A DNA stretch of 64,000 nucleotides from Harriotta raleighana (taxonomy: Eukaryota): assembly GCA_050575255.1 (NCBI GenBank), contig JBNZDD010013664.1:3599479-3663478 (forward strand). The letters are read 5' to 3'. The notes under the pieces were generated by a model that did no database searches, had not been told where the DNA came from, and saw only the letters and a list, made by a program, of their open reading frames with translations. Position 1 is the first letter of the stretch, and every line of letters starts with the position of its first letter. Shown here piece after piece: positions 6,410 through 63,812 of the stretch. The position numbers and the translations under genes were made by a program.

Positions 6410-27952
<21,543 letters not shown>

Positions 27953-32722: not shown

Positions 32723-32854
32723 TCACTTCCGCAGCCAAAGCCAACTGTTGACAAAACAGGCCGTGATGATGATGGAATAGAGGATGAGTTCTTTACGCGC
32801 ACGGTCCCGGCTCTCTTGTTCCAACAACTGTAGCCTCCGATTCAATTTGTTCAG
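32723..32854 (-). CDS. MFF-like/FATE1 last exon (coiled coil plus C-terminal transmembrane anchor)
   Basis: LNKLNRRLQLLEQESRDRARKELILYSIIITACFVNSWLWLRK*; strong polypyrimidine acceptor. Confidence 0.93.
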   Translation of the reverse strand: MNKLNRRLQLLEQESRDRARKELILYSIIITACFVNSWLWLRK

Positions 32855-35800
32855 CTGCAAGACACAGAGAGAGAGAAGGTGGTGGGTGGACCCTATTGTG
32901 CGCTCAAGCGGCTCAGGTAGAAACCAGCTCAATAGCACTTGATGATCAATTATCTTTTAAGTAGTAAATGAGATACAAAGCGTTCAACTGCTCTAAACTT
33001 TTAATTGAAGAGGCGTTCGGAGAACTGGAGGTTTATGGCCAGCACTTCTGCAGGTCCCACACTGCTTGGCCAGAGAGCAGGAACCCTGACTTTGAACTTT
33101 CTCCAGCAGCAGCCGAACCATTGCACTCTGCTAGCAAACCACCACTGGCATCACCATCAACAACAAATGACATATGTATAGCGCCTTTCTCGTCAGGTGG
33201 ACATCCCCAAGACACTGCACAATAATCTAGTTCCTTATCAGGTCGCTGAGACGACTCATAAAGCACTTCATAGAATATCGTGGATGAAACACAGCAGCGA
33301 ATTGCGCCCAGCAGTGTCCCACAATGCATGTGGGGTAAGGAGACTTGCCTAAGGTTTTGCCCTGCTCCGGATCCAACTCGAGTCCTCCACCTTGCAAGGC
33401 AAGAGCTCTAAGCAATACATTGCAGGACTACACCAGTCACATCATCATAATAATCTTTGAATTTGATATAGTGTTTTTCATGTTTTCTAGACCAGTAGTT
33501 TTCAACCTTTTTCAGTCATAAGAACATAAGAATTATGAGCAAGAGTCAGCCATTCGGCCCTTCGAGCCTGCCCCGCCGTTCAATAAGATCATGGCTTTTC
33601 AAGTTTGTGGTTTTTTTTTGACCTAACTCTAATTACCAGCCATATCCCCTAATCCCTCTATTTTTAAAAAAAAATCTATCAGTCTCAGCCTTGAAAATGT
33701 TCAAGGACTGAGCATCTACAGCCTTCTTTTGGGATAGTGAATTCACTACCTCCTCTAATGTACCTCTTGTTAATTATCAACATTATCATGTACCCGCCAC
33801 CCAACCACATACACACACATACCACCCCCTCGTTCGACTTGCATTTTACGACCAAGCTTTTTTTATATAACAAAATAACTAGCACCTACAAAACAAGGGG
33901 AATAACAATTAAATATACAATTTGGAAGGCTATAAAACCCTAAATAAGAACTAAATAAACCAATGTACCCCCACCTGTACCCACTGGAAGTAATTTTGTA
34001 CCCCCTAGGGTACATGTACCCCTGGCTGAGAACCACTGTTCTAGACATCTCAAAGCGCTTCACAGAATATACTGTAAAGTGAATTGACTTTATATCTTTA
34101 CCTGGCGCCGGAGTGTTACAATTTCCATCACACTGAAATTTTCGAGAACTCCCTCGGGGACTCCGTAGTCGTGGGAAATGCTGCAAATTACAGAGACAAA
34201 CTGTCAACAAATCAATTCATTCCTTAATACTGGCTGCAAAAAGGGTAACTGCTTCACTTTGACCCTTTAATTTCAAATTAATTTCATCTTTACATTCCTG
34301 TGGAAGGACTCAGTTTGGAAGGACTCAGTGGGAGAATTCAGTGCTTTAAAAATATAATTTTGTTGTTACTGCGAGTTAGCTTTGTGTGTTCTTTATTTTG
34401 TTTCAGCACTTGGCTATGTGCCGTGCTCTGTGATGCAGAATAACACACTGCCATGGGCAGCCAGTGCAGCCACCAGGTGTAACTGCAGTGCGTACATACA
34501 CAGATGCTCTGTGATGCATAATGCCACAGGGTCACTTTGACTCGGCAGCCACCAAGTGTAACTGCAGCAAAAAAAACCATAAACTTGAAAATAACTCATG
34601 AATGATAGGAGATACACAAAAACAAATATGCCCATGTCATTCCCAAGTGCAAGACATTCCCGATGAAGCATAAATCATGCTTCTATGTCAATCAATTATT
34701 GAGAGCCTTCTTGAATCGCAGACAGACATTGTATTAGTATAAAGATAAATGTACATAACCAAATGTAGATTTTGTAGTTATGTTTGTCAAATAAACCCAT
34801 TAAAACAACCAGCAACTCTGATTTTTGACAAACACTTTATAAGCAAACAGTGAAAGAGTTTCAAGCCCACACGATCACTACTGCACCTCCCCATATGTGA
34901 ATATGGAGAGGGGAAGCGTCGTCATTGGGTGGGAGAGGGAGAGAAACCAAGAGAAAATGGCAAACAATACAAACTACATTTGTTATATACGCTACTAATA
35001 TTTTTCACCAGTCCCACGGTGGATTAATGTGTTACCGGGGGTATTATCCATAGCTGTGGGGTAGTGGCTAAGAATATGGACACCCCCGTTAATATTATTT
35101 AGGCTGGTTTCCCCGGACATACAGGTGTTTTTTTTAGGAATTTCAAGGTAGTCATTTTTTATGAAAANTGGGGTAGTGGCTAAGAATATGGACACCCCCG
35201 TTAATATTATTTAGGCTGCCTATACTGGTTTCCCCGGACATACAGGTGTTTTTTTTAGGAATTTCAAGGTAGTCATTTTTTATGAAAAGGCATGAAAGNC
35301 AGGTTGACTGACTGGTCAGAATTTGTCACTAAACTAGTTTCCTATTAAATTATAGTATCTAATCTGTCATTAATCACTTGAACCTTAACCTTCATTATTA
35401 ATCTTGTATCCCAAACTTTCCCAAAGTCTGGAAAGCCAAGCAGATGCATTCCATTATTAACCAAATTTAGTATCTTCTCAAACCTTCTTGGTTTGTTAGG
35501 TGTGTGACCGTTCCTATGAAAACCACACTGACTGTTCCCTACACGGCCTGCATTCCCCAGATTAACATTGACAGCACTTCAAAAAGTGCTCTTCTGAATT
35601 CTCCTCAGGACCAGGGTTGAGCAAATATTGGTTGCCTTTCATGCTTTTCAATGTAAAGGCAATGTTTGCTTTCCTTCAGTGCTAAAGTACAGCTGTTGGG
35701 TAGTGTAATATTACCCAGTGAGGTGCCTATCAGCCATGGACTAACAGAATGGCAGAATAGGCTTGAGGGGCTGAATGACCTACTCCTGGAACATTTGCTT

Positions 35801-38800
35801 CTCTCATTGCCTTGAAAACTCCACAGAGACCTTATAATAATTAGCTACATTTTTGTTCAAAACATTTTACTTGCATAAACACACCTGAATTCCTCGGGCA
35901 AAATGGCTGAATTCAACATTTTCAAATCCTTTTCATTTGTACATACACATGTGCAGAATTGATATTGATATGACATGAACTGTCAATTCCTGCATATTTT
36001 GTGGGCGAAATGCAGTACCCAATTGCACACAGCAGTGTGCCACAAACAGCCGTGGATTGAGTGACCATTTTTTTTTGGAGAGTTTATTATTAGGGCTGTG
36101 GAATAAGGAAACTTGCCCAAGTTTGTGCTAGGAATCAAAGAAATATGGGTGTCAGGCTGACACACAATTTATTCTGGACCAATCTGCAGTATCTCTAATT
36201 CCACTTAGAGAGAGATCGTTCAACTCAACAAAGACTAGGAATGGAACTTGGGAACTCTGTGGTCTGTCTGGCTCAGCTGTTCACCGGATATACCTATGGA
36301 AGCATTCTATAGCATTTTAATTTAAAATCACAAATACTTGTGCCAGGCAATGTACTTAAAAAAACACATGATGATCACCTTTGACTTCTCGTACGAGTGG
36401 TCACATCCACACATGGATTATGAGAGCGAAGTCGGTCGCGAGGTTGAGTCCTTAATAAGAACATAATAAAAATATCAAGGATGAGAAATACCCATTTGCC
36501 CCATTGAAGCTCCATCCTTCCTTCTGAAATGCACATCACTCAATATAACACCCTAGTTTCTGCCTTTTCCCCCTCACCTGGTAGACAAAGAACGCTCAGA
36601 GTAAAATGCTATTTCTGATATCCGTAAAACTACTCTTTGCTATTTCAGGTTTGTATCAGAAACAGTAGTTCCTTCGCTGCTCTCCTAATTTAATTTTATA
36701 TATTCTACTTTTGCTCTAACTATTTGCATCCATTTAATATTTTATGTAGCTCAATGAGCTACCTTTTGTAACCTTCTATACGAGGGAAAATCTGGTAACT
36801 GATCTCTGCATCTTTTCAAACTAATATAGTTTGTCTCAGTGGTGTATTAACCAGACAAACTCAGTACAGTATTCTCTGGAGATCTTTTTGTTCTATTTCT
36901 ATTTCCCAGAATTTGTTTTTTTTTGTACACAAAATCTTCCCCACATTGTCCTGACATTGAAGGCGCTGATCTTATAATCATTTCCAGATCCTTCCTCTGA
37001 CAATTCAACCCCATTCATTATGGATCACAAAACCATGTTTTTGTGTCTGCCTACTAATAATAATAATCCTTGCAATTCATATAGCGCTTTTCATGTCTTC
37101 TAGACCAGTGGTTCTCAACCTTTTTCAGTACCCCTTGTTAATTTTCAACATTATCATGTACCCCCACCCAACCACATACACACATACCAACCCCCTCATT
37201 CCACTTGCATTTTATGACCAAGCTATTCTTATATAACAAAATAACTAGCACATGCAAAACAAGGGGAATAACAATTAAATATACAATTTGGAAGGCTATA
37301 AAATGCTAAATAAAAGAGCTAAATAAATCAATGTACCACCACCTATACCACCCTGGAAGTAATTTTGTACTCACTGGGGTAAATGCACCCTCGGTTGAGA
37401 ACCACTGTTCTAGACATCTTAAAGCACTTCATAGAATAAACTGTAAAGTGAATTGACTATATATTTATGGGCGAAATGCGGCAGCCAATTTTGCACAGCA
37501 GTGTCCCACAAACAGTTGTGGATTGAAATGACCAATTTTATTACTGCTTTTTTGGAGAATTATTAGGCGTGTGAAGTAAGGAAACTTGCCCAAGGTTTCA
37601 CTCTGACCTGCCTGGATTCGAACAGAGATCTCACATTTATAAGTCGAGTGCTCTAACCAGTGAGCTACAGAACTCAACTAATGTCCCAAAAATGTCCCCC
37701 AAAATTTGGGGAATTGTTGGCCAGGATACCAGAAGAAACTCCCTTCCAGGTATTTGAACAAATACAACTTGCACCTAATGATGTCGATACTCTCTTCGTA
37801 TGAAAACACGCCAGTTAAATACTAGCAGCTTGCACGGTAAGTGTCAATAGCTTGTTTACAAATTTACATTGAAAATTAACAAATTATTGAGTAAATGGCT
37901 GCAAGTTTGAACTGAATGTGGATATTTGAAAAAGCCCAGTGTTTTCAATGTACATAAGCAAACATAGTGATTCCACGATGACTTTGCTATTGCTATTTTT
38001 GTTTTTGATTCATGTTGTAATTGCAGACATGCATGCAACTCTGGTGTAACATTTTTCGACTGGTATAGGGCTCGCACTGATGTTCACAAGCCACAAGTGT
38101 GACTCAGTACAAATCTGGGTTTGACAAGATTGGACTCGATCAAATCTGCCTCTAATATTCTCTTCCTGCAGGACTCGGCACACCTTATACAGTAGTTGAG
38201 ATCAGGAATCAAACCGCATGTGGGGGTAGGGGGGGCGTGGTTGGTGGGAAATTAAACCAGTTTGCTGAGGCAAATATTTTTGGGTTCTTTCAAGAATGTT
38301 TCAACATTCGTTACCCAATATACAAACAGATTGTCATGGATTGTTGTAAAAGAAACTTCACCAATAAAGCAATACATTCACGGTCAATTCATTCTGTGCA
38401 TCATAAAGTTTAACATCACACAATTAAGAATTTTCAGAAGCAAAGATCTTAATGAAAAAAGAGTGTTTGACTTTTGCACAGCCACTAACGTCTACAGCTG
38501 AACAGATCTCATGCTGGTAACAACAGTGAATAAGGACCAAGACAGGCTTTTACTTAAAATGCTCCAGTGCATTAGGCATGTTGTTCTTTACATTGTTTCT
38601 CAGCCACATGCACTCAATTCAAATCCTCTGAACTTTTATCTGTCTTGATCACAAACTGGTGATAAACACAATCCTAAATAGAAATACATGACTCTTATCT
38701 ATTTACAGATCATCCCTCACTTTGATCGAGTGATTAATTACCTTAACATTCAGGGAAACAAGAAGGGGCCCAGTGCCACTGTTGTTTATCACTACTCATC

Positions 38801-41800
38801 CAAAGTTACCTCCCAAAAATTAATTGGTTGCTCATCAGTGTTGTGTGGCACAAATCAGCTGTCACATTTGTCTCCATACATTCATTTCACCCCTGAAAGT
38901 GACCAATCTCACATTATAATTCAGTCAGTCACTCCACTTGCATTCTATAAGCGATTGCATATTAAATAATAATAATCCTTGCATTTAATAGCGCTTTTCA
39001 TGTCTTCTAGACACCTCAAAGGGCTTCACAGAATTGTGTAAAGTGATTGACTGTATATTTGTGGGCGAAACTCAGCAGTCAATTGCACACAATCCACCAA
39101 CAGACATGGATTGAAATAACCAATGTGTTATTTTTTTTGAGGGATTATTATTAGGTGTGTGGAATAAGGAAACGTCCCCAAGGTTTCACTCTGCCTGGAA
39201 TTGAACCCAGGTCTCTCGCTTTGTAAGGTGAGTGCTCTAACCACTAAGCTACAAGACTCCACAATTGGTTCTGAGGTAGCAGAAAAAACACAACAAAAAT
39301 ACTTAGTGGTTTAAAAGAGAATCTCTCTTGAATTATTCAGCAATTTGGGCACTATTAATGTGGAAAATAATTATTTGCAGTTAAAAGAGCAAGTAACAAC
39401 AGCACACCATTCAATGCTTAAATTTATTTCTCCTGATTCTACTATCTATATTGTTAGAGCTTGAATCTCGTTTTCCTCCAGTAAAAGTTTGTGAGCAACA
39501 GTCTGTGAATTCTGTGCTTTTATTTAGTATATTACATACACTCTCCATTAAGGAATATATTACTATTTTCAGGCATAAGTAAAATCTGCAGTTAGAACCA
39601 TCATTCTGTGCATGCAAAGAAGCACCTTGTAAAGCTCATGTCATTTCAGTTTTCTGTATAGATAGTCTGGTGCAGTTTTGTTCAATTCATCTCCAGCTAA
39701 TACTAAAGCCTCACGTTATATCCTGGCTTATACAGTAACCAAACCTCACGTTATTCTGAAACAAATTGAGACATAAACAGTAACCAACACTACTGGATGA
39801 GGATATTTTATACTGTGTTGAATCTGTAATCCATTCATAATAAGTCTTTGTCTTGCTGTACAAACAAAAATATCTGTAGTCTTAGATACAAGACAAAATA
39901 GGAATAAGCGGGACAATGTTACCAATAGGTACCTGGATTTGAGGTCGGCCGATGGGATGGAATGAAAATATACCATCTTTCTGGTCTACTGTATAATAAT
40001 AATAATACTTGCATTTGATATAGTGCTTTTCACATCTTCTAGACATCTTAAAAGAATATACTGTAAAGTTAATTGACTGCATGTTTGTGGGCAAAACGCT
40101 GCAGCCAAATGTGCACAGCAGTGTCTTACAAACAGTCATGGATTGAAATGACCAATTTTTTTGAGGGATTATTATAATATAGTACAGTATATGTGTACAT
40201 TGATACACTCATGCGGTGTTAATACATTATCATTATTATTGCATGGGTCCTAAAGAAATTTGATATTAGTCCCAATCTTATATGGCAGGTCAACAAAACT
40301 GCCTGATTTCCCAATGTCATTCATTCAGATCACAAGGTGTGGTATGGGAAGGGAAATGGAAAGGTCATGCTATTGTAGCCATCTAAGGCTGGGGGAGAGA
40401 TTTACTCTGCAGCTAAACCCCTTTGATCTATCAGCACAAGTGACAAAAGTACAAACCGGAAAAGTATCTAATTTTCTGGAGCAAATTAGAGTAACCCTCA
40501 CCTGATGTGCACAAAGCTCATGCTCCACCTCCCACTGCTTTAAAAACAGATAGCTTACTGTGGGACCAACATTCACCAAAACAAATTCACTTTTTGTTTG
40601 TTTGTTTTTGCTGAACATGAGCCTAATGACTGGGTGAAGCAGACACTATTGGGAGGCGTTTCACATGGAAGATCACAAATAAGTACCTTCGATAAAGCAC
40701 GTAGCCAGATCCCAAAGCAGCAGCTCAAGGGTTATTCAGATCCAAAAACTCTGTCAAAACGACACATCCCATGCAAAGGTTAAAAAGCAGGGAGGCCACT
40801 TCAACAAGAAGCTTTTAAAAAGTCACCCAAAGTAATTCTGGTCACCTTCTCTGCGTTTCCTGGTGGACCGTTTCCGTAAAGCGCTCTGACAATCTGTGCC
40901 CAATATATTTTAATACATTGAACGCATTGTGAGGCGAGAATAATGCCTGACCCGGTCCAGGCGATGGGAATGGAAACCTTACGCCATTGGAGTGATCAAC
41001 CCTGTGGATTGGATAAAAGTAAAACAGTGGTCAAAGGAAATTTTCTAAAATGAGAGAAGAGGAATAGAACCCCATATTTGCACAGGTTTAGAGTGGCCTC
41101 TCTTCTCTGTTGAAGGAACGTGTGATAAAATGATGGAGAACTTTATATCAACTGGTTTCGCTACTGTAACATGAGGGGTTCGAACAAGATCAAAGAATTG
41201 ACAAACAAGAAAAAGCTATTCTTGCTGAATCATCTGCTCACCTACTGGTTTGAATTCAATCAATGCTTTTCAATCACTATGACAATCAGTAAAACCTCGC
41301 TCACTTGCTTTCCTTTGCAACACACACAAATGAATGATCTGCCATCAAGTTAGCTCATACTTCGCCTCCCATTCCACATTGTAAATATTTCCTTGTCCAG
41401 GCCTCGTAGCAAAATCAAACCTGTCTCTCAAACATAGCACTTTCTGGGGTGTATGTCTTCCTCACAAGAAGAAGCAGATCCAATCTCCTACCACAAATCA
41501 TCAACATTTTCTGTCTGGCTCTCCATTCTCTCTCGCATCTACTGTTCTAAATTTATTCCCGACTCGGGTTGAAAATGATCTACGAATGCTTTTCAGCCAA
41601 CGGCCAACAAAGTTTGAAGGTTGATTGTTGACCTTAGACACAGGATACTGAGAACACATCAACCAGAAACCCGAGTTGACTCACCAGCAGCTCAAAAAGA
41701 GCCATTCTGTGCTTATCCACATCTACGGAATGAAACCACTCTTAACTCACAGAAAAAACTGAAGTAGAGACAGCATACTCCATGTAACAGTCATGTAACA

Positions 41801-44800
41801 TCATTATCATAGCTGTGCAGAAAAGGTTATAACCAGTGCGCTAAATAAGCCAGTGCAAGACTTCTTACTTACACGTTCCTCTGTTTTCTGGGCGCAGCAG
41901 ATAGACAGATTTCATTCTCATTCAATGTTCTTGAACTGTTCGAATTTTGGGAAGTGGCTAGCTGTACCAAAACAACACAGAGCACAGGGTAAGTTACGCT
42001 ACTGTTACACGAGAACAGATTGCACCCGAGTACTTGTCTACAATTTAATTTTGTTCAGCTGGGTCTCTGACACGTAACAATAATAATAATCCTTGTATTT
42101 GATATAGCGCTTTATCATGTCTTCTAGATGTCTCAAAGTAATTCACAGAATATATTGTAAAATAAATTGACTGTACTGTGTATATATATATGGGCAAAAC
42201 ACAGCAGCCAATTGCGCACAGCAGTGTCCCACAAACAGTCGTGGATTAAAATGACCAAATTTATTATTTTGGGGAGGAATTAATATTAGGCGTGTGGAGT
42301 AAGGAAACTTATAATATAAATAATAATGATCCTTGCATTTGATATAGCGCTTTTCATGTCTTCTAGACTTGCCCAAGGTTTTGCCCTGTCGGGAATCGAA
42401 CCCAGGTCTCTCGCTTGGAAGGAGAATGCTCTTAACCACTGAGCTACAGGACTCCATTTGTGGAAATCCATCACCTGCTTAAGCGTATCCAAACCAAGCT
42501 GAGAATTCCATGCTTCCCTCATCCACATGGAAATCCCAGAGATAAATTGTTGGGAGTGGAATATGCACTATCTGCCTGGAGAGACACATCCTGCTTACCT
42601 AATTCCAGAAAGCATTAGGTGCAGTTTGGCTAGAGACAAGGCTTGGGAACCCCAGAGTTTGCTGTGAGGTAACTACTATAGTCCAACCAGCTAATACCAC
42701 CTAGCTAATACCACCTAGTTGCTAGCTTCATCACTGCCTGTCCAGGACCACCCTATATTTAGAGCTTTGGCTTGCAGTAACCCTGGAGCTGAATGGAAGG
42801 ACTCCCTGCCAATGACTGATCTGCCCTTCCAGGTCTTGCCATACGTGTCTATAAGAATAGACTTGAGCAGTCTTAATCACAGAGCAAGTTTCTTTTTTAA
42901 AAAAAGGCTGGCCGTAATTCGGAATGTGAATTCTCTGTAAAGATTTCTCTGTACTTTCCACTCCCCGTGAATTACTTCCACTTGCATATTTTTCTCAGTA
43001 ACAGAAATGATGGAGGAGTTTTGTCAATGGATTATTGTAATAATTTTTCCACTTGATTTCCCCAAAACAGTATGCAGTTAACAGATCATTTTATATGTAC
43101 AGTAGCTGGAAACAAACCTATCCATAGTCTAAATCTATTTATCCTACCAGAAAACTGCTAAAGCCAAAATGGTACTGAGACTTTCTGCATTTCTGAAAAC
43201 ATCTGATTATGGCAATTTATGGCACTGAGTCCTATAACTCAGTGGTTGGAGCACTGGCCTTGGGTTCAAATCCAGGCAAATCCAAACGAAACCGTGGCCA
43301 AGTTTCCTCACTCCACATGCCTAATAATAATCCCTTAAAAAAAAAGGTCATTCCAATCCATGACTGTTTATGGGACACTACTATGCGCAATTGACCATCG
43401 AGTTTCACCCACAAACATACAGTTTACAGTATTTTTTTGAAGTGCTTTGAGAGGTCTAGAAGAGGTGAAAGCGCTATATCAAAAGAAAAACAATAATAAT
43501 CGTTACATTTGGTACAGTGCCTTATCATGTCGTTGAGACATCCCAAAACTCTTCACAAAATACAATAATAATAATCCTTACATTTATATGTAAATATAAG
43601 CATGAGACTTGTGTTCAAATCCAGGCAGATCAGGGAGAAACTTTGGGCAAGTTTCCTTACTCCACACACCTAATAATAATCCCTCCAAAAAACCACAATA
43701 ATAAAATTGGTCATTTCAATCTACAACTGTTTGTGGGACGCTGCTGTGCACAATTGGCTGCCGCATTCCGCCCACAAATATACAGTCAATGCACTTTACA
43801 GTATATTCTGTGAAGCGCTTTGGGACATTGATAGGATGTGAAAAGCGCTATATCAAATGCAAGGATTATTATTAATATTATTATTATTATTATAGCGCTT
43901 TCCACATCTTATCTATGTCTCAAAGCGCTGTGAACTGACTATGTTTTTTCAAGGGATTACTAACCCCTTAATTAACTACAAACGATTCTTACTGCTATGT
44001 AAAAACTAATGTGTGGGGTGAGGAAACTTGCTAATATTATGGTGAGCTAACACATCAGTAAACACCAGTTACATAACCAGAGTTCTATTTAGCACTTTTA
44101 GAACTAAGTTCAAGGGTTTGTCAGCCTTGAGACCTGACTTCACCCTAGCAATTAACTATGTAACTGCAGCTTCTGGTCCATTTCAACAATATAAATGGTT
44201 TATTTTAACATTGCAGTAAAGTACCTCTCGTCTTTGCAGTGGAATCTCTGGATTGTCCACTTTCAATGCCTGTGGGTTCCCGAACATCATGCAGGGAGAG
44301 ATGTTGACAGGTGGAGGATCTGACATTGACGCCGTATGTTGGAACCAACCATAAAAGTAAGGCCTCGCTCCAATGTCCTGCATGTCTGCTTCTGAACACA
44401 AAAGTGGGACAACTTTGAACTTAATAATGAGATCCTATAATTGTATATTTCCTATAATTGTACTTTATCACATTGTTGAGATGTCTCAAACAGGCGTCAC
44501 AGAATATACTGGAAAATATATTTGTGTAATACCTCTTCGACTGATATTACAGATGTACAGTTCTCCTCCCCCCATCCTCTATTCTCAATTTCGCCTTCCA
44601 TTTCACGTGAGAAACAGCAATACTTCACCTTGTGCAGTTAATGTCACCTCTTCACAGACAATGTGGTTGGTTCAAATCAATTTCATTTTAATAATGTGGT
44701 TCAACCCTTTATCAACAGGCCGGACGGCTAGAACAAAAAAAAGCTTGCTTTGCTCTGCTGAGTAATAAACGCAATTTACCTGCCATGGATATTCTTTCAG

Positions 44801-44984
44801 GGATGCACATATGCAGCGATGCCATCTGAATATCCTCTGCTTTTTCTTCATCTCCTAATTCCTCAGTCACCTTCAGTCTATTGGGAATTCTCATCTTCTG
44901 GCCGATGGTTTCCATGAAACTCAGATCACAACGTAGCCCCCCCAGGTCTCCAGGGTCAGCAGATGCTGCAAATGGGTCTGTCAT
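32723..44984 (-). CDS. FATE1: Mitochondrial fission factor family protein (MFF paralog at the FATE1 syntenic position), 7 coding exons, about 299 aa
   Basis: N-terminal MFF repeats (QKMRIPNRLKV, MCIPERISMAG), coiled coil LRRQLNKLNRRLQLLEQE and tail anchor ILYSIIITACFVNSWLWLRK*. Exon chain 205+167+89+156+72+79+132 = 900 nt in phase. Lies directly downstream of PRRG3 in the same orientation, as human FATE1 does. Symbol assigned from synteny. Confidence 0.8.
33493..34038. mobile_element. Second copy of the same hAT MITE, interrupted by a CR1 3' end (about 33517-33757)
   Basis: TIRs CAGTAGTTTTCAACC / GGCTGAGAACCACTG, TSD TTCTAGAC (33485-33492 and 34039-34046); internal sequence aligns to 37106-37407. 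Confidence 0.9.
34102..34180 (-). CDS. MFF-like/FATE1 penultimate exon (ISHDYGVPEGVLENFSVMEIVTLRRQ)
   Basis: Ends LRRQ| as the MFF penultimate exon does; tttgcag acceptor, CAG|gtaaag donor. Confidence 0.88.
36379..36450 (-). CDS. MFF-like/FATE1 candidate cassette exon (TQPRDRLRSHNPCVDVTTRTRSQ)
   Basis: 72 nt, phase 2-2, open, CpG-rich relative to the intron; aag acceptor and AG|gtgatc donor are weaker. Confidence 0.5.
37106..37407. mobile_element. Non-autonomous hAT (Charlie-type) MITE
   Basis: Perfect 15-bp TIR CAGTGGTTCTCAACC / GGTTGAGAACCACTG, 8-bp TSD TTCTAGAC (37098-37105 and 37408-37415), subterminal TGTACC repeats. Confidence 0.92.
40846..41001 (-). CDS. MFF-like/FATE1 exon (VDHSNGVRFP...NVLKYIGHRLSERFTETVHQETQR)
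   Basis: 156 nt, symmetric phase 2-2, open; predicted amphipathic segment like the MFF GILSLIQSSTRRAYQQIL exon. Confidence 0.7.
41873..41961 (-). CDS. MFF-like/FATE1 exon (LATSQNSNSSRTLNENEICLSAAPRKQRNV)
   Basis: 89 nt, phase 0 to 2, gtaagt donor; corresponds to the MFF RERSMSEN exon. Confidence 0.75.
44225..44391 (-). CDS. MFF-like/FATE1 exon (EADMQDIGARP...PLQRRE)
   Basis: Open phase 1 to 0 frame; tgttcag acceptor, GAG|gtactt donor. Confidence 0.75.
44780..44984 (-). CDS. MFF-like/FATE1 first ATG-containing exon (MTDPF...QKMRIPNRLKV...MCIPERISMA); exon begins at 44989
   Basis: Both MFF repeats; acceptor ccttcag, donor G|gtaaat. Confidence 0.9.
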
Positions 44985-45949
44985 GACAGCTGAAGGACAG
45001 ATGCCAATGAAACAAACAGTCACACAATAAGCAACCCTGCATACAAACTATGCAGTGCAAGTGCTGAAACTCTCACTTCATTGTAAGTACCCAACAAAAA
45101 AGAGAAGAAATAAAACCAAGTGTGAATGCACTGTTACAATAATAATCACCCTTACAGCTATTTACTGATGTGTTAGCTCAAGTTTCCTTACTCCACACAT
45201 TAGTTCTTATATTAGTTTCTACACCAGTAATACTGTGTATTTGGGGGACAAACTCAGCCTACAATCAACCGTGAAGCGAAACAACATTTGTTTTTATTGT
45301 AGTCATCTTTAACATCCACTGATCAGGCAGATGTGACTTTACCTTAACATCTAATCTCAGCACTGCCCAGCACAGCCCAGCACAGCGTTGGGAACTTCCA
45401 CGGGTCACATAATTAACATTCTCGTGTTTCCTCCAACAAACATAACATTTACAACAAAATTACATTAGCAGGAGGGCCTCACTTTGGGAGGACGGCGCCA
45501 GGTGTTGGTTCCAGGTTCTGGAGGAAGCGGCTGAGCCACAAACAATGTAGGGGGGGGGGACACACCCGCCATAAAGTCTGTACAAGTTCAACCCACAACC
45601 TTTAAATTAGAGACAGATGTTGGGTCCACCAGATACCGTCACCCCCCCCCCCCCTGTACAGTATATCCTGTGAAGCGCTTTGAGACGTCTCAACGACGTG
45701 ATGAGGCGCTGTATCAGGATTATTATTAGGAACCTGATCAGATGAGCCAGGCTGACGGGGGGGGGGGAGGCCCCAGGCTTCACACTGACAGGTGATGACT
45801 GTTGGGCTGCCTGTCTGACCTGCCTATCATGGCTTGGGGCGGGGGAAGGGAGCAAAGGGGGCAGGTGCTTCCTACTCACTCTCCACCCCCCCCCCCCATT
45901 CCTTTCTCCAATCCTCCCCCTCTCCTGCTCTGCACTAAACAACTACAGC

Positions 45950-46430
45950 ATCTCGCGGGGCAAGGTCTCGCAATGATTAGTACCCTATGGGCGTGTGTAT
46001 GTGTGTGAGGGAGCGAGTCCGCCATCACCCACCTCCTGCCGCCCTCTGACTGACTGCCCGCCCCTCCCTCCCGGCACCTGGTGCGCGCGGACGTCACAAG
46101 CCCTCGCGCTCCCTTTCGGACGCCATGACATCACAAGCCCACTCACGCTCCCCCTGTATCTCTCCGCGCCCCACCCACGTGACATGACGTTTTCCCCTCT
46201 CCCCTCCCACCCACCCCACTACATGATGCTGCTCATTTCCCCGCCCACACCGCCCACCACGTGACTCTCCTCCTTTCCAAGCCCACTCACAGCCACATGA
46301 CGTGATGCTCACCACCCCGCCTCCCTCACCACGTGATGTAACGCTCCCGCCTCCTCGGCCAGCGGGGCCCGGATTAGGGGGCGGGTTTCACGCCCAATTG
46401 GGCGGGTTTTGTGTTGTACGCGCGAATGGG
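45950..46430 (-). promoter_or_regulatory. CpG-rich promoter region of the MFF-like/FATE1 gene
   Basis: Most conspicuous non-coding CpG-dense segment in the window. CACGTG at 46176, 46258 and 46330, CRE-like TGACG/GACGTCA sites, GC boxes near 46377 and 46400, CCAAT near 46394; about 1 kb upstream of the first coding exon. Confidence 0.75.
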
Positions 46431-60346: not shown

Positions 60347-61919
60347 CTGAAACACCAGAGAAAGATTCCAGATACGAGGCCCGATCCGTTCACCCCCAGC
60401 ATATTCACCAAATGCCCCCGCTTTGTACAATATCATCGTTTTTCATTTTTGCAAACACTGACTATCCAGCACCTTGGGACATCCTCCCAACGTGAAAGGC
60501 GCTAAACAAATTCAAACATTATTCACATGGGCCAGAACAGAGTGAAGCTTCCACTACACTGTCCCAATACATGGAGTCCTGTAGAGTAGTGGTTAGTACA
60601 CTCACTGTGCAAACGTCAGGATCCATGTTCAAAGCCCAGTTAGGGTGAAATCTTAAGGCAACTTACTCCATGTGTTTCTTTCTGTTTACCTAGTAGTGAG
60701 TAGGAATTCTGTTATCAGTCGACGGATTGCTTTTCAAGGGCAATAATTCCTCAAAAAGCTCAATCACTTCACGATTCATGGGACATTGCATTGCGTAATT
60801 GGCTGCTGCATTTCACCCACAAAATATCGTCAATTCACTTTATAAAATAACGCATAAAGCGGTCTCAATGGTGTGATAATCTGCTATATCAAATGCAAGG
60901 ATTATTATTATTAATAGTTATTATTTACAATGGCCACAAAGCTTCCTCTATTGTTTCCCAATATCACAGGCAGGATTGGCTGAATGTCTCTATTTCTCCG
61001 AATACATGTCTAACACTGTTGACTCCTCTGTCGTTGCCATTGTCACCAGCCTTCCTCGTGGCTTTCCATAATAATAATGATCTTTGCATTTGATAAAGAG
61101 CATTACCACGTTGTTGAAAGGAGTCAAACGTGCTTCTGGGCATTTTACTATGAAGCAAAGTGACTGTATTTATAGGCAAATACAGGAGCCCATTTGTACA
61201 CAGCAATGTCTCACAAACAACCAGAAAATGACTAATCAATTCTATTTGGAGGATTGTTGGCCAGGCTACTAGGAGAGAGAAACTCCCTTCACTTTTTGAA
61301 TAGTGAAGCTTGGTTTAATTCCTCACTTGAAGGTCACTTTTTCTAACAATGTAACACAACCCCAGCACTATGTGGCTGTGTCACCCTAGATTGAAAGTTC
61401 AAAGACCCACAACATTTTGTCTCAAGAAGTGAGAGTGCTACCATCTAAGCCAGACTGACCTCAGAATTGAGTGAGATGATGGGAGAGGGATGCAATAGTA
61501 ATAATAATTCATGCATTTAATACAGCGCATTCCACGTCTTCTAGATGTGTTTCACGGAATATACTGTAAATATACGCAGCAGTATCCCACAAACAGCCGT
61601 GGATTGAAGTGACCGTTTTTTTTTGAGGGATTATTATTAGGCATGTGGAGTAAGGAAACTTGCTCAAGTTTTCACCCTGCCTGGAATCAAACCAAGGTCT
61701 CTCGCTTGTAAGGCGAGAGCTCTAATCATTGAATTACAGGACTTCATAATTGAGCTACAGGACTCCACGTGTGATGTAATGTGATGTTCCTAAGCATAAT
61801 TCATTCTTTGGGTTTCCAGAGATGATAATTAGGAACGATAACTGCTCTATGTCCCCTTTCCTGTCAGCAGGCTCTGGCTTGTTCTATGTCCCCCTATTCA
61901 GAACAAACCCATCTAGTTA

Positions 61920-62126
<207 letters not shown>

Positions 62127-62439
62127 TTAAAGCCAACTCAAGAGGATTTGTTGAGTTAAAAAGCTTAGTTAATGACTGGAGGAGACCATTTTTGAGTACA
62201 TCTCAATTGGCTTGTGATTATAGTTATGAAGTCCATTCCATTCTCATTCTGAGAATTTCCATGTGTAGGTGGCAAACATGCAACTCTTTCCCAGTTATCC
62301 TTCCTCTCCCAAATCTGGGTCCCTCACCAGCACTGCTTTCCTCCAGTTCAGCCACATTGCCCAATATAACCACAACAAAATTACATTTGTACAGGCCCTT
62401 TCATGTTGGGAGGACGCTGGTCCATGCTTTTATTAAGAT

Positions 62440-63812
62440 ACTGAGGATGGCAAAGTGCATTATAGAGAATGGAGGAGTGATATTAAAAGAGTGATAAGAC
62501 AGGCTAAAAGATCGCATGAGAAGAAGTTAGCGGGAAACATAAAGGGGAATCCTAAAATATTTTATAAGCACAGAAAGGAAAAAAGGTTAGTTAAAGGTAA
62601 GGTGGGGCCAATCAAAGATAATGACGGCAATCTTGTTGTGGAGGNNNNNNNNNNNNNNNNNNNNNNNNNNNNNNNNNNNNNNNNNNNNNNNNNNNNNNNN
62701 NNNNNNNNNNNNNNNNNNNNNNNNNNNNNNNNNNNNNNNNNNNNNNNNNNNNNNNNNNNNNNNNNNNNNNNNNNNNNNNNNNNNNNNNNNNNNNNNNNNN
62801 NNNNNNNNNNNNNNNNNNNNNNNNNNNNNNNNNNNNNNNNNNNNNNNNNNNNNNNNNNNNNNNNNNNNNNNNNNNNNNNNNNNNNNNNNNNNNNNNNNNN
62901 NNNNNNNNNNNNNNNNNNNNNNNNNNNNNNNNNNNNNNNNNNNNNNNNNNNNNNNNNNNNNNNNNNNNNNNNNNNNNNNNNNNNNNNNNNNNNNNNNNNN
63001 NNNNNNNNNNNNNNNNNNNNNNNNNNNNNNNNNNNNNNNNNNNNNNNNNNNNNNNNNNNNNNNNNNNNNNNNNNNNNNNNNNNNNNNNNNNNNNNNNNNN
63101 NNNNNNNNNNNNNNNNNNNNNNNNNNNNNNNNNNNNNNNNNNNNNNNNNNNNNNNNNNNNNNNNNNNNNNNNNNNNNNNNNNNNNNNNNNNNNNNNNNNN
63201 NNNNNNNNNNNNNNNNNNNNNNNNNNNNNNNNNNNNNNNNNNNNNNNNNNNNNNNNNNNNNNNNNNNNNNNNNNNNNNNNNNNNNNNNNNNNNNNNNNNN
63301 NNNNNNNNNNNNNNNNNNNNNNNNNNNNNNNNNNNNNNNNNNNNNNNNNNNNNNNNNNNNNNNNNNNNNNNNNNNNNNNNNNNNNNNNNNNNNNNNNNNN
63401 NNNNNNNNNNNNNNNNNNNNNNNNNNNNNNNNNNNNNNNNNNNNNNNNNNNNNNNNNNNNNNNNNNNNNNNNNNNNNNNNNNNNNNTGTTTCCGCTGGTA
63501 GGTGTGTCTGTGACCCGAGGTCACAGTCTTAAGATATCTACCAAAAGAAGCAGAGGGGAGGTTAGAAGAAATGTTTTCACTTAGTGAGTTGTTCGAATTT
63601 GGAATGATCTGAAAGGGTAGTGAGGTCCGATTCGATAGCAGCTTTTAAGAGAGAACTGGATAGGTATCTGGGGAAGACGGGTTTGCAGGGTTATGGGGAG
63701 AAAGCTGGTGATTGGGGTTAATGAAAGTAACATTGCTCTGTCAAAGAGCCGGCACAGACTCGATGGGCCGAATGGCCTCCTTCTGTGCTGTAACATTCTA
63801 TGAATCTATGAT
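62440..63812 (+). mobile_element. CR1 LINE spanning the N gap, in a PRRG3 intron
   Basis: IRQAKRSHEKKLAGNIKGNPKIFYK...VGPIKDNDG (CR1 ORF2), then 3' end gatgggccgaatggcctccttctgtgctg...tctatgaatctatgattct. Confidence 0.85.

Follow-up and report, generated by a model that had tools for sequence, protein, structure and literature searches.

The window considered here is a 64,000-nucleotide stretch of the genome of the chimaera Harriotta raleighana (assembly GCA_050575255.1, contig JBNZDD010013664.1, hereafter C13664, positions 3,599,479 to 3,663,478). It carries a gene that resembles the mitochondrial fission factor gene MFF and lies in a position, beside a PRRG-type gene, that a first-pass annotation read as that of FATE1. 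The question is which of the two genes this is, and whether its product would recruit Drp1. Comparison of the sequences indicates that it is very probably the chimaera orthologue of FATE1 and the sister of MFF.

The gene has seven exons on the minus strand between 32723 and 44989. The joined coding sequence is 900 nt and encodes 299 amino acids and a stop, with no internal stops. Six introns were identified by a splice-site scan and by tblastn with database orthologues, each GT-AG, with phases 1, 0, 2, 2, 2 and 0. The seven in-phase exons proposed in the first-pass annotation were all found, and a tblastn search with P0002, a Callorhinchus model, recovered every one. Exons 1 and 7 scored 38.4 and 51.5 bits on the Pfam family Miff (PF05644; cut-off 23), placing the gene in this family, and the C. 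milii orthologue scored 127 bits. The predicted protein was identical to the Callorhinchus milii model at 271 of 299 residues and to the horn shark model at 191 of 296. A search with exon 1 returned 23 proteins, exclusively from cartilaginous fishes and almost all named MFF-like. Protein P0026 comes from a contig of 1,260 bases; its sequence matches the end of the skate model exactly and crosses exons 2, 3, 5, 6 and 7, implying that the transcript is spliced in a skate. In several relatives the difference between long and short isoform models is exon 4 (40846-41001; 156 nt, phase 2-2), which is absent from the short models P0001, P0012 and P0014. The intact introns, the intact reading frame and the presence of orthologues throughout sharks and rays ruled out both a processed pseudogene and a recent duplicate.

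A word-index search with the window protein missed nearly all bony-vertebrate relatives, which were recovered by a full profile hidden Markov model (HMM) search. The profile search gave 175 representatives, of which 150 were listed and 30 had their names looked up. Second-copy proteins among those looked up came from coelacanth, lungfish, bichir, bowfin, cyprinids, salmonids, caecilian, newt, lizards, turtle, birds and platypus. The NCBI name 'fetal and adult testis-expressed transcript protein' was carried by many bird models, one turtle isoform, marsupials and placentals. A tree was constructed from 48 rows hand-picked across lineages and 231 columns. Most matches, mainly fragments and near-duplicates, and human FATE1 were not included.

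The window gene was placed inside a jawed-vertebrate clade of 31 rows (support 96/89), together with proteins named FATE1 from birds, turtle, marsupials and placentals. The eight MFF rows, among them the MFF of this genome, formed a separate clade (97/96). Both clades persisted in a tree without the N-terminal columns that hold the repeats (93/91 for FATE and 95/97 for MFF). In approximately unbiased (AU) tests, grouping the chondrichthyan copy with MFF was rejected (p-AU 0.0004), as was leaving therian FATE1 outside the clade (p-AU 0.021). The opposite outcome, a gene inside the MFF clade in a genome with no other MFF, did not occur, and a second locus is present. The clade, the AU tests, the tree without repeat columns and the PRRG neighbour all agree on the FATE1 orthology that had been proposed. 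The jawed-vertebrate tree and the AU tests also support an MFF/FATE1 duplication older than the split between cartilaginous and bony fishes. This too had been suggested at the outset.

The duplication may belong to either the first or the second vertebrate genome duplication. One lamprey gene was sister to the FATE clade (98/92), with a long branch and a partial model. Both lamprey genes grouped together in the C-terminal tree from which the N-terminal columns had been dropped. A duplication after the lamprey split was not rejected (p-AU 0.068). At least two genes of the Miff family are present in lampreys (P0089 and P0087/P0100); one has the TPPRxLTL block described below, and the other, a partial model, lacks it and tends toward the FATE clade. 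Paralogue pairs joining C13664 and C13729, the contig that carries the genome's MFF, were uninformative: BRICHOS was found on C13664 only, arrestin on neither contig, and COL4A5/6-type genes were not on C13664.

The position of the gene was compared with that of FATE1. The same strand carries, in tandem and 15 kb upstream, a gene encoding a Gla domain, a single transmembrane (TM) segment and a PPxY motif (59795-62126, minus strand). Its Gla exon is at about 61920-62126 (Gla 53.5 bits) and its TM/PPxY last exon is at 59795-60442. We take it to be PRRG3. A search of the ESM Atlas with the last exon returned generic single-pass membrane clusters only and did not give the gene name. The wombat FATE1 model P0242 is fused to a PRRG piece that matches the window PRRG gene (E 6e-10), scoring 45.8 bits against it and 22.3 bits against the genome's other PRRG. 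The location beside a PRRG gene claimed for FATE1 was confirmed in this way, with the window's same-strand upstream gene as the best match to the wombat piece. In human, FATE1 lies downstream of PRRG3 at Xq28, with CNGA2 as its other neighbour.

Several observations weigh against orthology with placental FATE1. The other immediate neighbour of the window gene is SYTL-type rather than CNGA2. No cyclic nucleotide-gated (CNG) channel or VMA21 match was found on the contig of the window, and three CNG matches were on other contigs. Since the CNG channel and VMA21 matches are on other contigs, PRRG is the sole link agreeing with the human order. The branch leading to placental FATE1 is very long, at 2.19 changes per column, and a clade excluding placentals alone was not rejected (p-AU 0.054). 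With human FATE1 also not among the tree rows, and the neighbours past PRRG differing from the human order, these points would suit a separate MFF paralogue to which placental FATE1 was joined by long-branch attraction. Such a paralogue is very improbable and is largely refuted by the remaining comparisons. The 31-row clade tracks the species tree, from cartilaginous fishes through ray-fins and lobe-fins to platypus, then marsupials, then placentals (99/96 and 95/100 along the mammalian series). The exclusion of all therians was rejected, as given above. In the wombat FATE1 model, the fused piece belongs to the same PRRG paralogue, and the placental sequence …LxIAEMMERG preserves a trace of the turtle junction …LSLAEMMEAG. 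Orthology of the window gene to FATE1 is accordingly the reading followed below.

A canonical MFF was sought elsewhere in the genome. Of nine candidates for the Miff profile, seven were matches: two fell in the window and the other five on contig C13729. A search with the last exon returned the same two loci, and no further Miff locus was found in the genome by these searches. The MFF on C13729 begins 6 kb after collagen IV NC1 exons (COL4A3-type) of a head-to-head pair. The order COL4A4-COL4A3-MFF is that of human 2q36. The window gene, on C13664, does not occupy this MFF position directly behind COL4A4-COL4A3. The exons of the C13729 gene are 211, 173, 89, 177, 60, 85 and 132 nt, with phases identical to those of the window gene. 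The MFF-like exon sizes and phases noted in the first-pass annotation were upheld, with an 89-nt third and a 132-nt last exon in both genes. Window protein and own MFF were identical at 86 of 281 aligned residues, and in exon 7 at 24 of 43. For exons 1, 4, 6 and 7 the similarity was higher than in any of 500 shuffles. It was marginal for exon 3 and exon 5 (36379-36450; 72 nt, phase 2-2), where 17 and 25 of 500 shuffles were as high, respectively. Exon 2 of the two genes had no similarity, with 207 of 500 shuffles as high. The donor site of intron 2 in the canonical MFF appears to be GC (C13729:893075-893076). The SUMO-site lysine of this MFF is replaced by arginine (IRRERS) and the AMPK serine is retained. 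Database model P0081 is a collagen IV NC1 domain fused to an MFF C-terminus, which mirrors the COL4A3-MFF adjacency in another vertebrate. A sequence search of the PDB found no MFF chain (0 matches with P0214 and three chance matches with the window protein).

The window gene resembles MFF (Pfam Miff; Tango11 in Drosophila) in its seven-exon skeleton, its phases, its two N-terminal repeats, its cassette middle exon, its coiled coil and its C-terminal tail anchor. It differs from MFF in clade and locus, in lacking the TPPRxLTL block and the RERS-type AMPK site, in its altered repeat 2, and in a more hydrophobic TM segment with a cysteine. The full MFF architecture ascribed to it was therefore partly retained: the exon skeleton, repeat 1, the coiled coil and the tail anchor stood, and the exon 2 block, the unaltered repeat 2 and the AMPK/SUMO site did not.

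Repeats 1 and 2 are carried by exon 1 (44780-44989; ATG at 44984, 205 coding nt). Repeat 1, QKMRIPNRLKV (44868-44900), is an MFF-type Drp1-binding motif by sequence. Repeat 2 reads MCIPERISMA (44781-44810) followed by E past the intron, and differs from the ...IVVAG ending of MFF. It had been quoted earlier as MCIPERISMAG; the spliced form ends ...ISMAE, and the G came from reading past the donor. Repeat HMMs were trained solely on MFF, one lamprey and invertebrate rows, with 400 shuffles as the baseline. Repeat 1 scored 15.6-38.3 bits in all 21 non-therian FATE rows and 26.6 bits in the window (shuffle maximum 6.7), and its core was invariant in 11/11 chondrichthyan rows. It was under the shuffle maximum in 4/4 marsupial and 6/6 placental tree rows. 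The repeat 2 core, M-x-I-P-E-R-I in the window, was found in 21/21 non-therian rows and one of four marsupials, and its end was altered throughout the clade from IVVAG to the ISLAE/ISMAE type. With HMMs trained on the clade, weak repeat remnants could be seen in some of the marsupials, and placentals had none. An R2-like motif has been reported for human FATE1; the HMMs did not detect it in the placental rows, which do not include human. Retention of the repeats is not peculiar to the chimaera copy: both were present in all 21 non-therian rows of the FATE clade.

The TPPRxLTL block was present in 8/8 MFF, 7/7 outgroup, 1/2 lamprey and 0/31 FATE-clade rows. A looser form of the pattern was found in 29 of 31 invertebrate proteins. 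Exon 2 of the window gene (44225-44391; 167 nt, phase 1-0) lacks the block. A third conserved motif of MFF, R3, was described by Liu and Chan (PMC4666140); in their two-hybrid assays, MFF no longer bound full-length Drp1 once truncation had removed R3. In the same paper, MFF fragments 1-100, 1-61 and 1-50 bound Drp1 only when it lacked insert B, and fragments with R1 and R2 bind the Drp1 stalk, R1+R2 plus stalk being termed the minimal unit. Taken as the LKTPPRVLTL…LDFL block with inferred boundaries, R3 was not found in the window gene. The loss of TPPRxLTL and the change in repeat 2 both date to the base of the FATE clade, which does not fit the purely MFF-like ancestral state proposed for this gene.

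Exon 3 (41873-41961; 89 nt, phase 0-2) corresponds by position to the exon that carries the SUMO/AMPK site in MFF, given as LKRE-RS in 10.1101/2023.05.05.539603. No match to this site was found in the window protein. Four ray-finned FATE-clade proteins (P0048, P0054, P0040 and P0036) have a basophilic kinase motif, RRSYSD/RRSFSD, where MFF has its AMPK site, and the chimaera copy lacks it. AMPK control may persist in the fish FATE-clade proteins.

With the probable R3 block gone, though kept in MFF and in most invertebrate proteins, with repeat 2 altered throughout the clade and the AMPK/SUMO site not kept, the window protein is unlikely to be a second Drp1 receptor that is fully active and duplicates the role of MFF. 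The second Drp1 receptor raised in the first-pass annotation is plausible, though probably not the equal of MFF. A fully active receptor would be compatible with the strong retention of repeat 1, which lies in the N-terminal 50 residues of MFF reported in PMC3002033 to be essential for Drp1 recruitment in cells. It would also be compatible with the minimal unit of R1+R2 and stalk in PMC4666140, with a last exon holding coiled coil and tail anchor at 24/43 identity to MFF, and with the MFF-like cassette splicing of the middle exon.

The coiled coil begins in exon 6 (34102-34180; 79 nt, phase 2-0; …TLRRQ) and continues in exon 7 (32723-32854; 132 nt including the stop) at about 32804-32854. The tail anchor is at about 32732-32788, has a 19-residue hydropathy of 1.87 and ends in RK. 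Mean TM hydropathy was 1.84 in the 31 FATE-clade rows and 1.41 in the eight MFF rows. The TM cysteine pattern was present in 27/31 FATE-clade rows and 0/17 other rows. The higher hydrophobicity and the clade-specific cysteine, shared with mammalian FATE1, suggest a partial location at the endoplasmic reticulum (ER). Against this location, TM hydropathy in the invertebrate outgroup was 1.65, between the FATE and MFF clades; because the outgroup is intermediate and the rows are related, the case for the ER is weak.

The TM signature bears on whether the protein already behaves like mammalian FATE1, which according to a 2025 preprint (10.1101/2025.08.18.670752) is on mitochondria and ER in human, lacks R1, does not recruit Drp1 and causes Mfn2-dependent hyperfusion. 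The window protein and mammalian FATE1 share the clade, the PRRG neighbour, the TM signature and hydrophobicity, and the absence of the probable R3 block. They differ in length (299 aa compared to about 180 aa) and in the repeats: the window protein keeps both, marsupials have remnants, and none could be detected in the placental rows examined. On a FATE1-like reading the chimaera protein would sit at mitochondria-ER contacts and oppose fission without productive Drp1 recruitment. It would act, for example, by joining MFF oligomers or via Mfn2, with its repeats binding another partner or trapping Drp1 unproductively. The loss of probable R3 and the change of repeat 2 at the clade base, together with the human hyperfusion result, are in line with this. 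It is rather doubtful given the repeat 1 core, invariant across the chondrichthyan rows, and the scores of 21/21 non-therian rows on an HMM of MFF and invertebrate sequences. The conservation of repeat 1 is explained most simply if the partner is still Drp1.

The likeliest reading, at about even odds, is that the window protein is anchored by its tail, carries a coiled coil and serves as a Drp1 adaptor whose binding is weaker or more conditional than that of MFF. The C-terminal hydrophobic helix and basic tail would insert the protein in the outer mitochondrial membrane. The coiled coil, near to that of MFF, would oligomerise it; oligomerisation of the MFF coiled coil, probably as a trimer, is reported in PMC8684745 to be needed for Drp1 activation. 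The clustered repeats 1 and 2 would capture oligomeric Drp1 via the stalk. Without the probable R3, full-length Drp1 would be engaged poorly, so the protein would tune fission as a helper or competitor rather than replace MFF. Later, decay of the repeats in therian mammals would leave the non-recruiting human FATE1.

Some findings count against this adaptor. Window repeat 2 scored 4.3 bits on the MFF-type HMM, which is within the shuffle range (maximum 5.2). The TPPRxLTL block is probably R3, an assignment made by position (residues 87-106 in P0214); the conclusion of R3 loss holds for R3 anywhere in exon 2, because the whole of exon 2 has lost similarity. The literature searched, which covered few subscription journals, held no functional study of non-mammalian FATE-clade members. 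A sequence search of the PDB found no MFF chain (0 matches with P0214 and three chance matches with the window protein).

The genes themselves are already annotated, and the names used by NCBI point to FATE1 orthologues as far out as birds and turtles. The database 'mitochondrial fission factor-like' and FATE1 genes from sharks to platypus are direct orthologues with the same motif pattern and no substantial difference. The same literature yielded nothing about where FATE1 came from, about its repeat-bearing forms outside mammals, or about stepwise motif or R3 loss. The terms 'evolution', 'ortholog' and 'paralog' were absent from the accessible part of the 2025 FATE1 preprint. We tentatively suggest that all jawed vertebrates other than marsupials and placentals may have an unstudied second Drp1 adaptor, an ancestral FATE1 with R1 and R2 and without R3. 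It would derive from the first vertebrate genome duplication and would recruit Drp1 at ER-mitochondria contacts or compete with MFF. Loss of R3, change of repeat 2 and therian repeat erosion would have led stepwise to an anti-fission cancer/testis protein.

The significance lies in gene-family history within a well-annotated family and not in a new type of system. The human cancer/testis antigen FATE1 is recast as probably what erosion has left of an MFF paralogue that is old in vertebrates. MFF, then FATE1 of sharks, fishes, birds and platypus, then the marsupial and placental forms make a natural graded series for dissecting R1, R2 and R3 in Drp1 recruitment. Studies of MFF loss in fish, amphibians and birds carry an unaccounted paralogue with Drp1-type repeats.

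The SYTL4-type gene, with FYVE_2 and C2 exons, is at about 6370-27230 on the plus strand and is convergent with the FATE gene. Further neighbours are TYW2, RRM (CSTF2-type), parvulin (PIN4-type) and GH15 (PHKA-type) genes. Most of these genes are X-linked in human. The TYW2/TRMT12-type gene is multi-exon and lies between the CSTF2-type and SYTL4-type genes (C13664:3579297-3585463). Human TYW2/TRMT12 is intronless and located elsewhere.

A CpG-island-like stretch (GC 0.62, observed/expected CpG 0.89) at 45951-46450, roughly 1 kb upstream of the first coding exon, is probably the promoter, and an untranslated first exon is likely within it. It contains three of the eight CACGTG E-boxes in the window and three of the 12 TGACGT sites resembling cAMP response elements. 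These sites are partly inside a degenerate 38-bp tandem repeat (46200-46290). In intron 5 a stretch of about 110 bases is duplicated around a single N (35059-35299), probably an assembly artefact. A repeat resembling short interspersed elements is present in many copies in introns throughout the window, and open reading frame fragments of a reverse transcriptase of the CR1 type, a long interspersed element (LINE), are located at 16677-17249 and 62437-62650.

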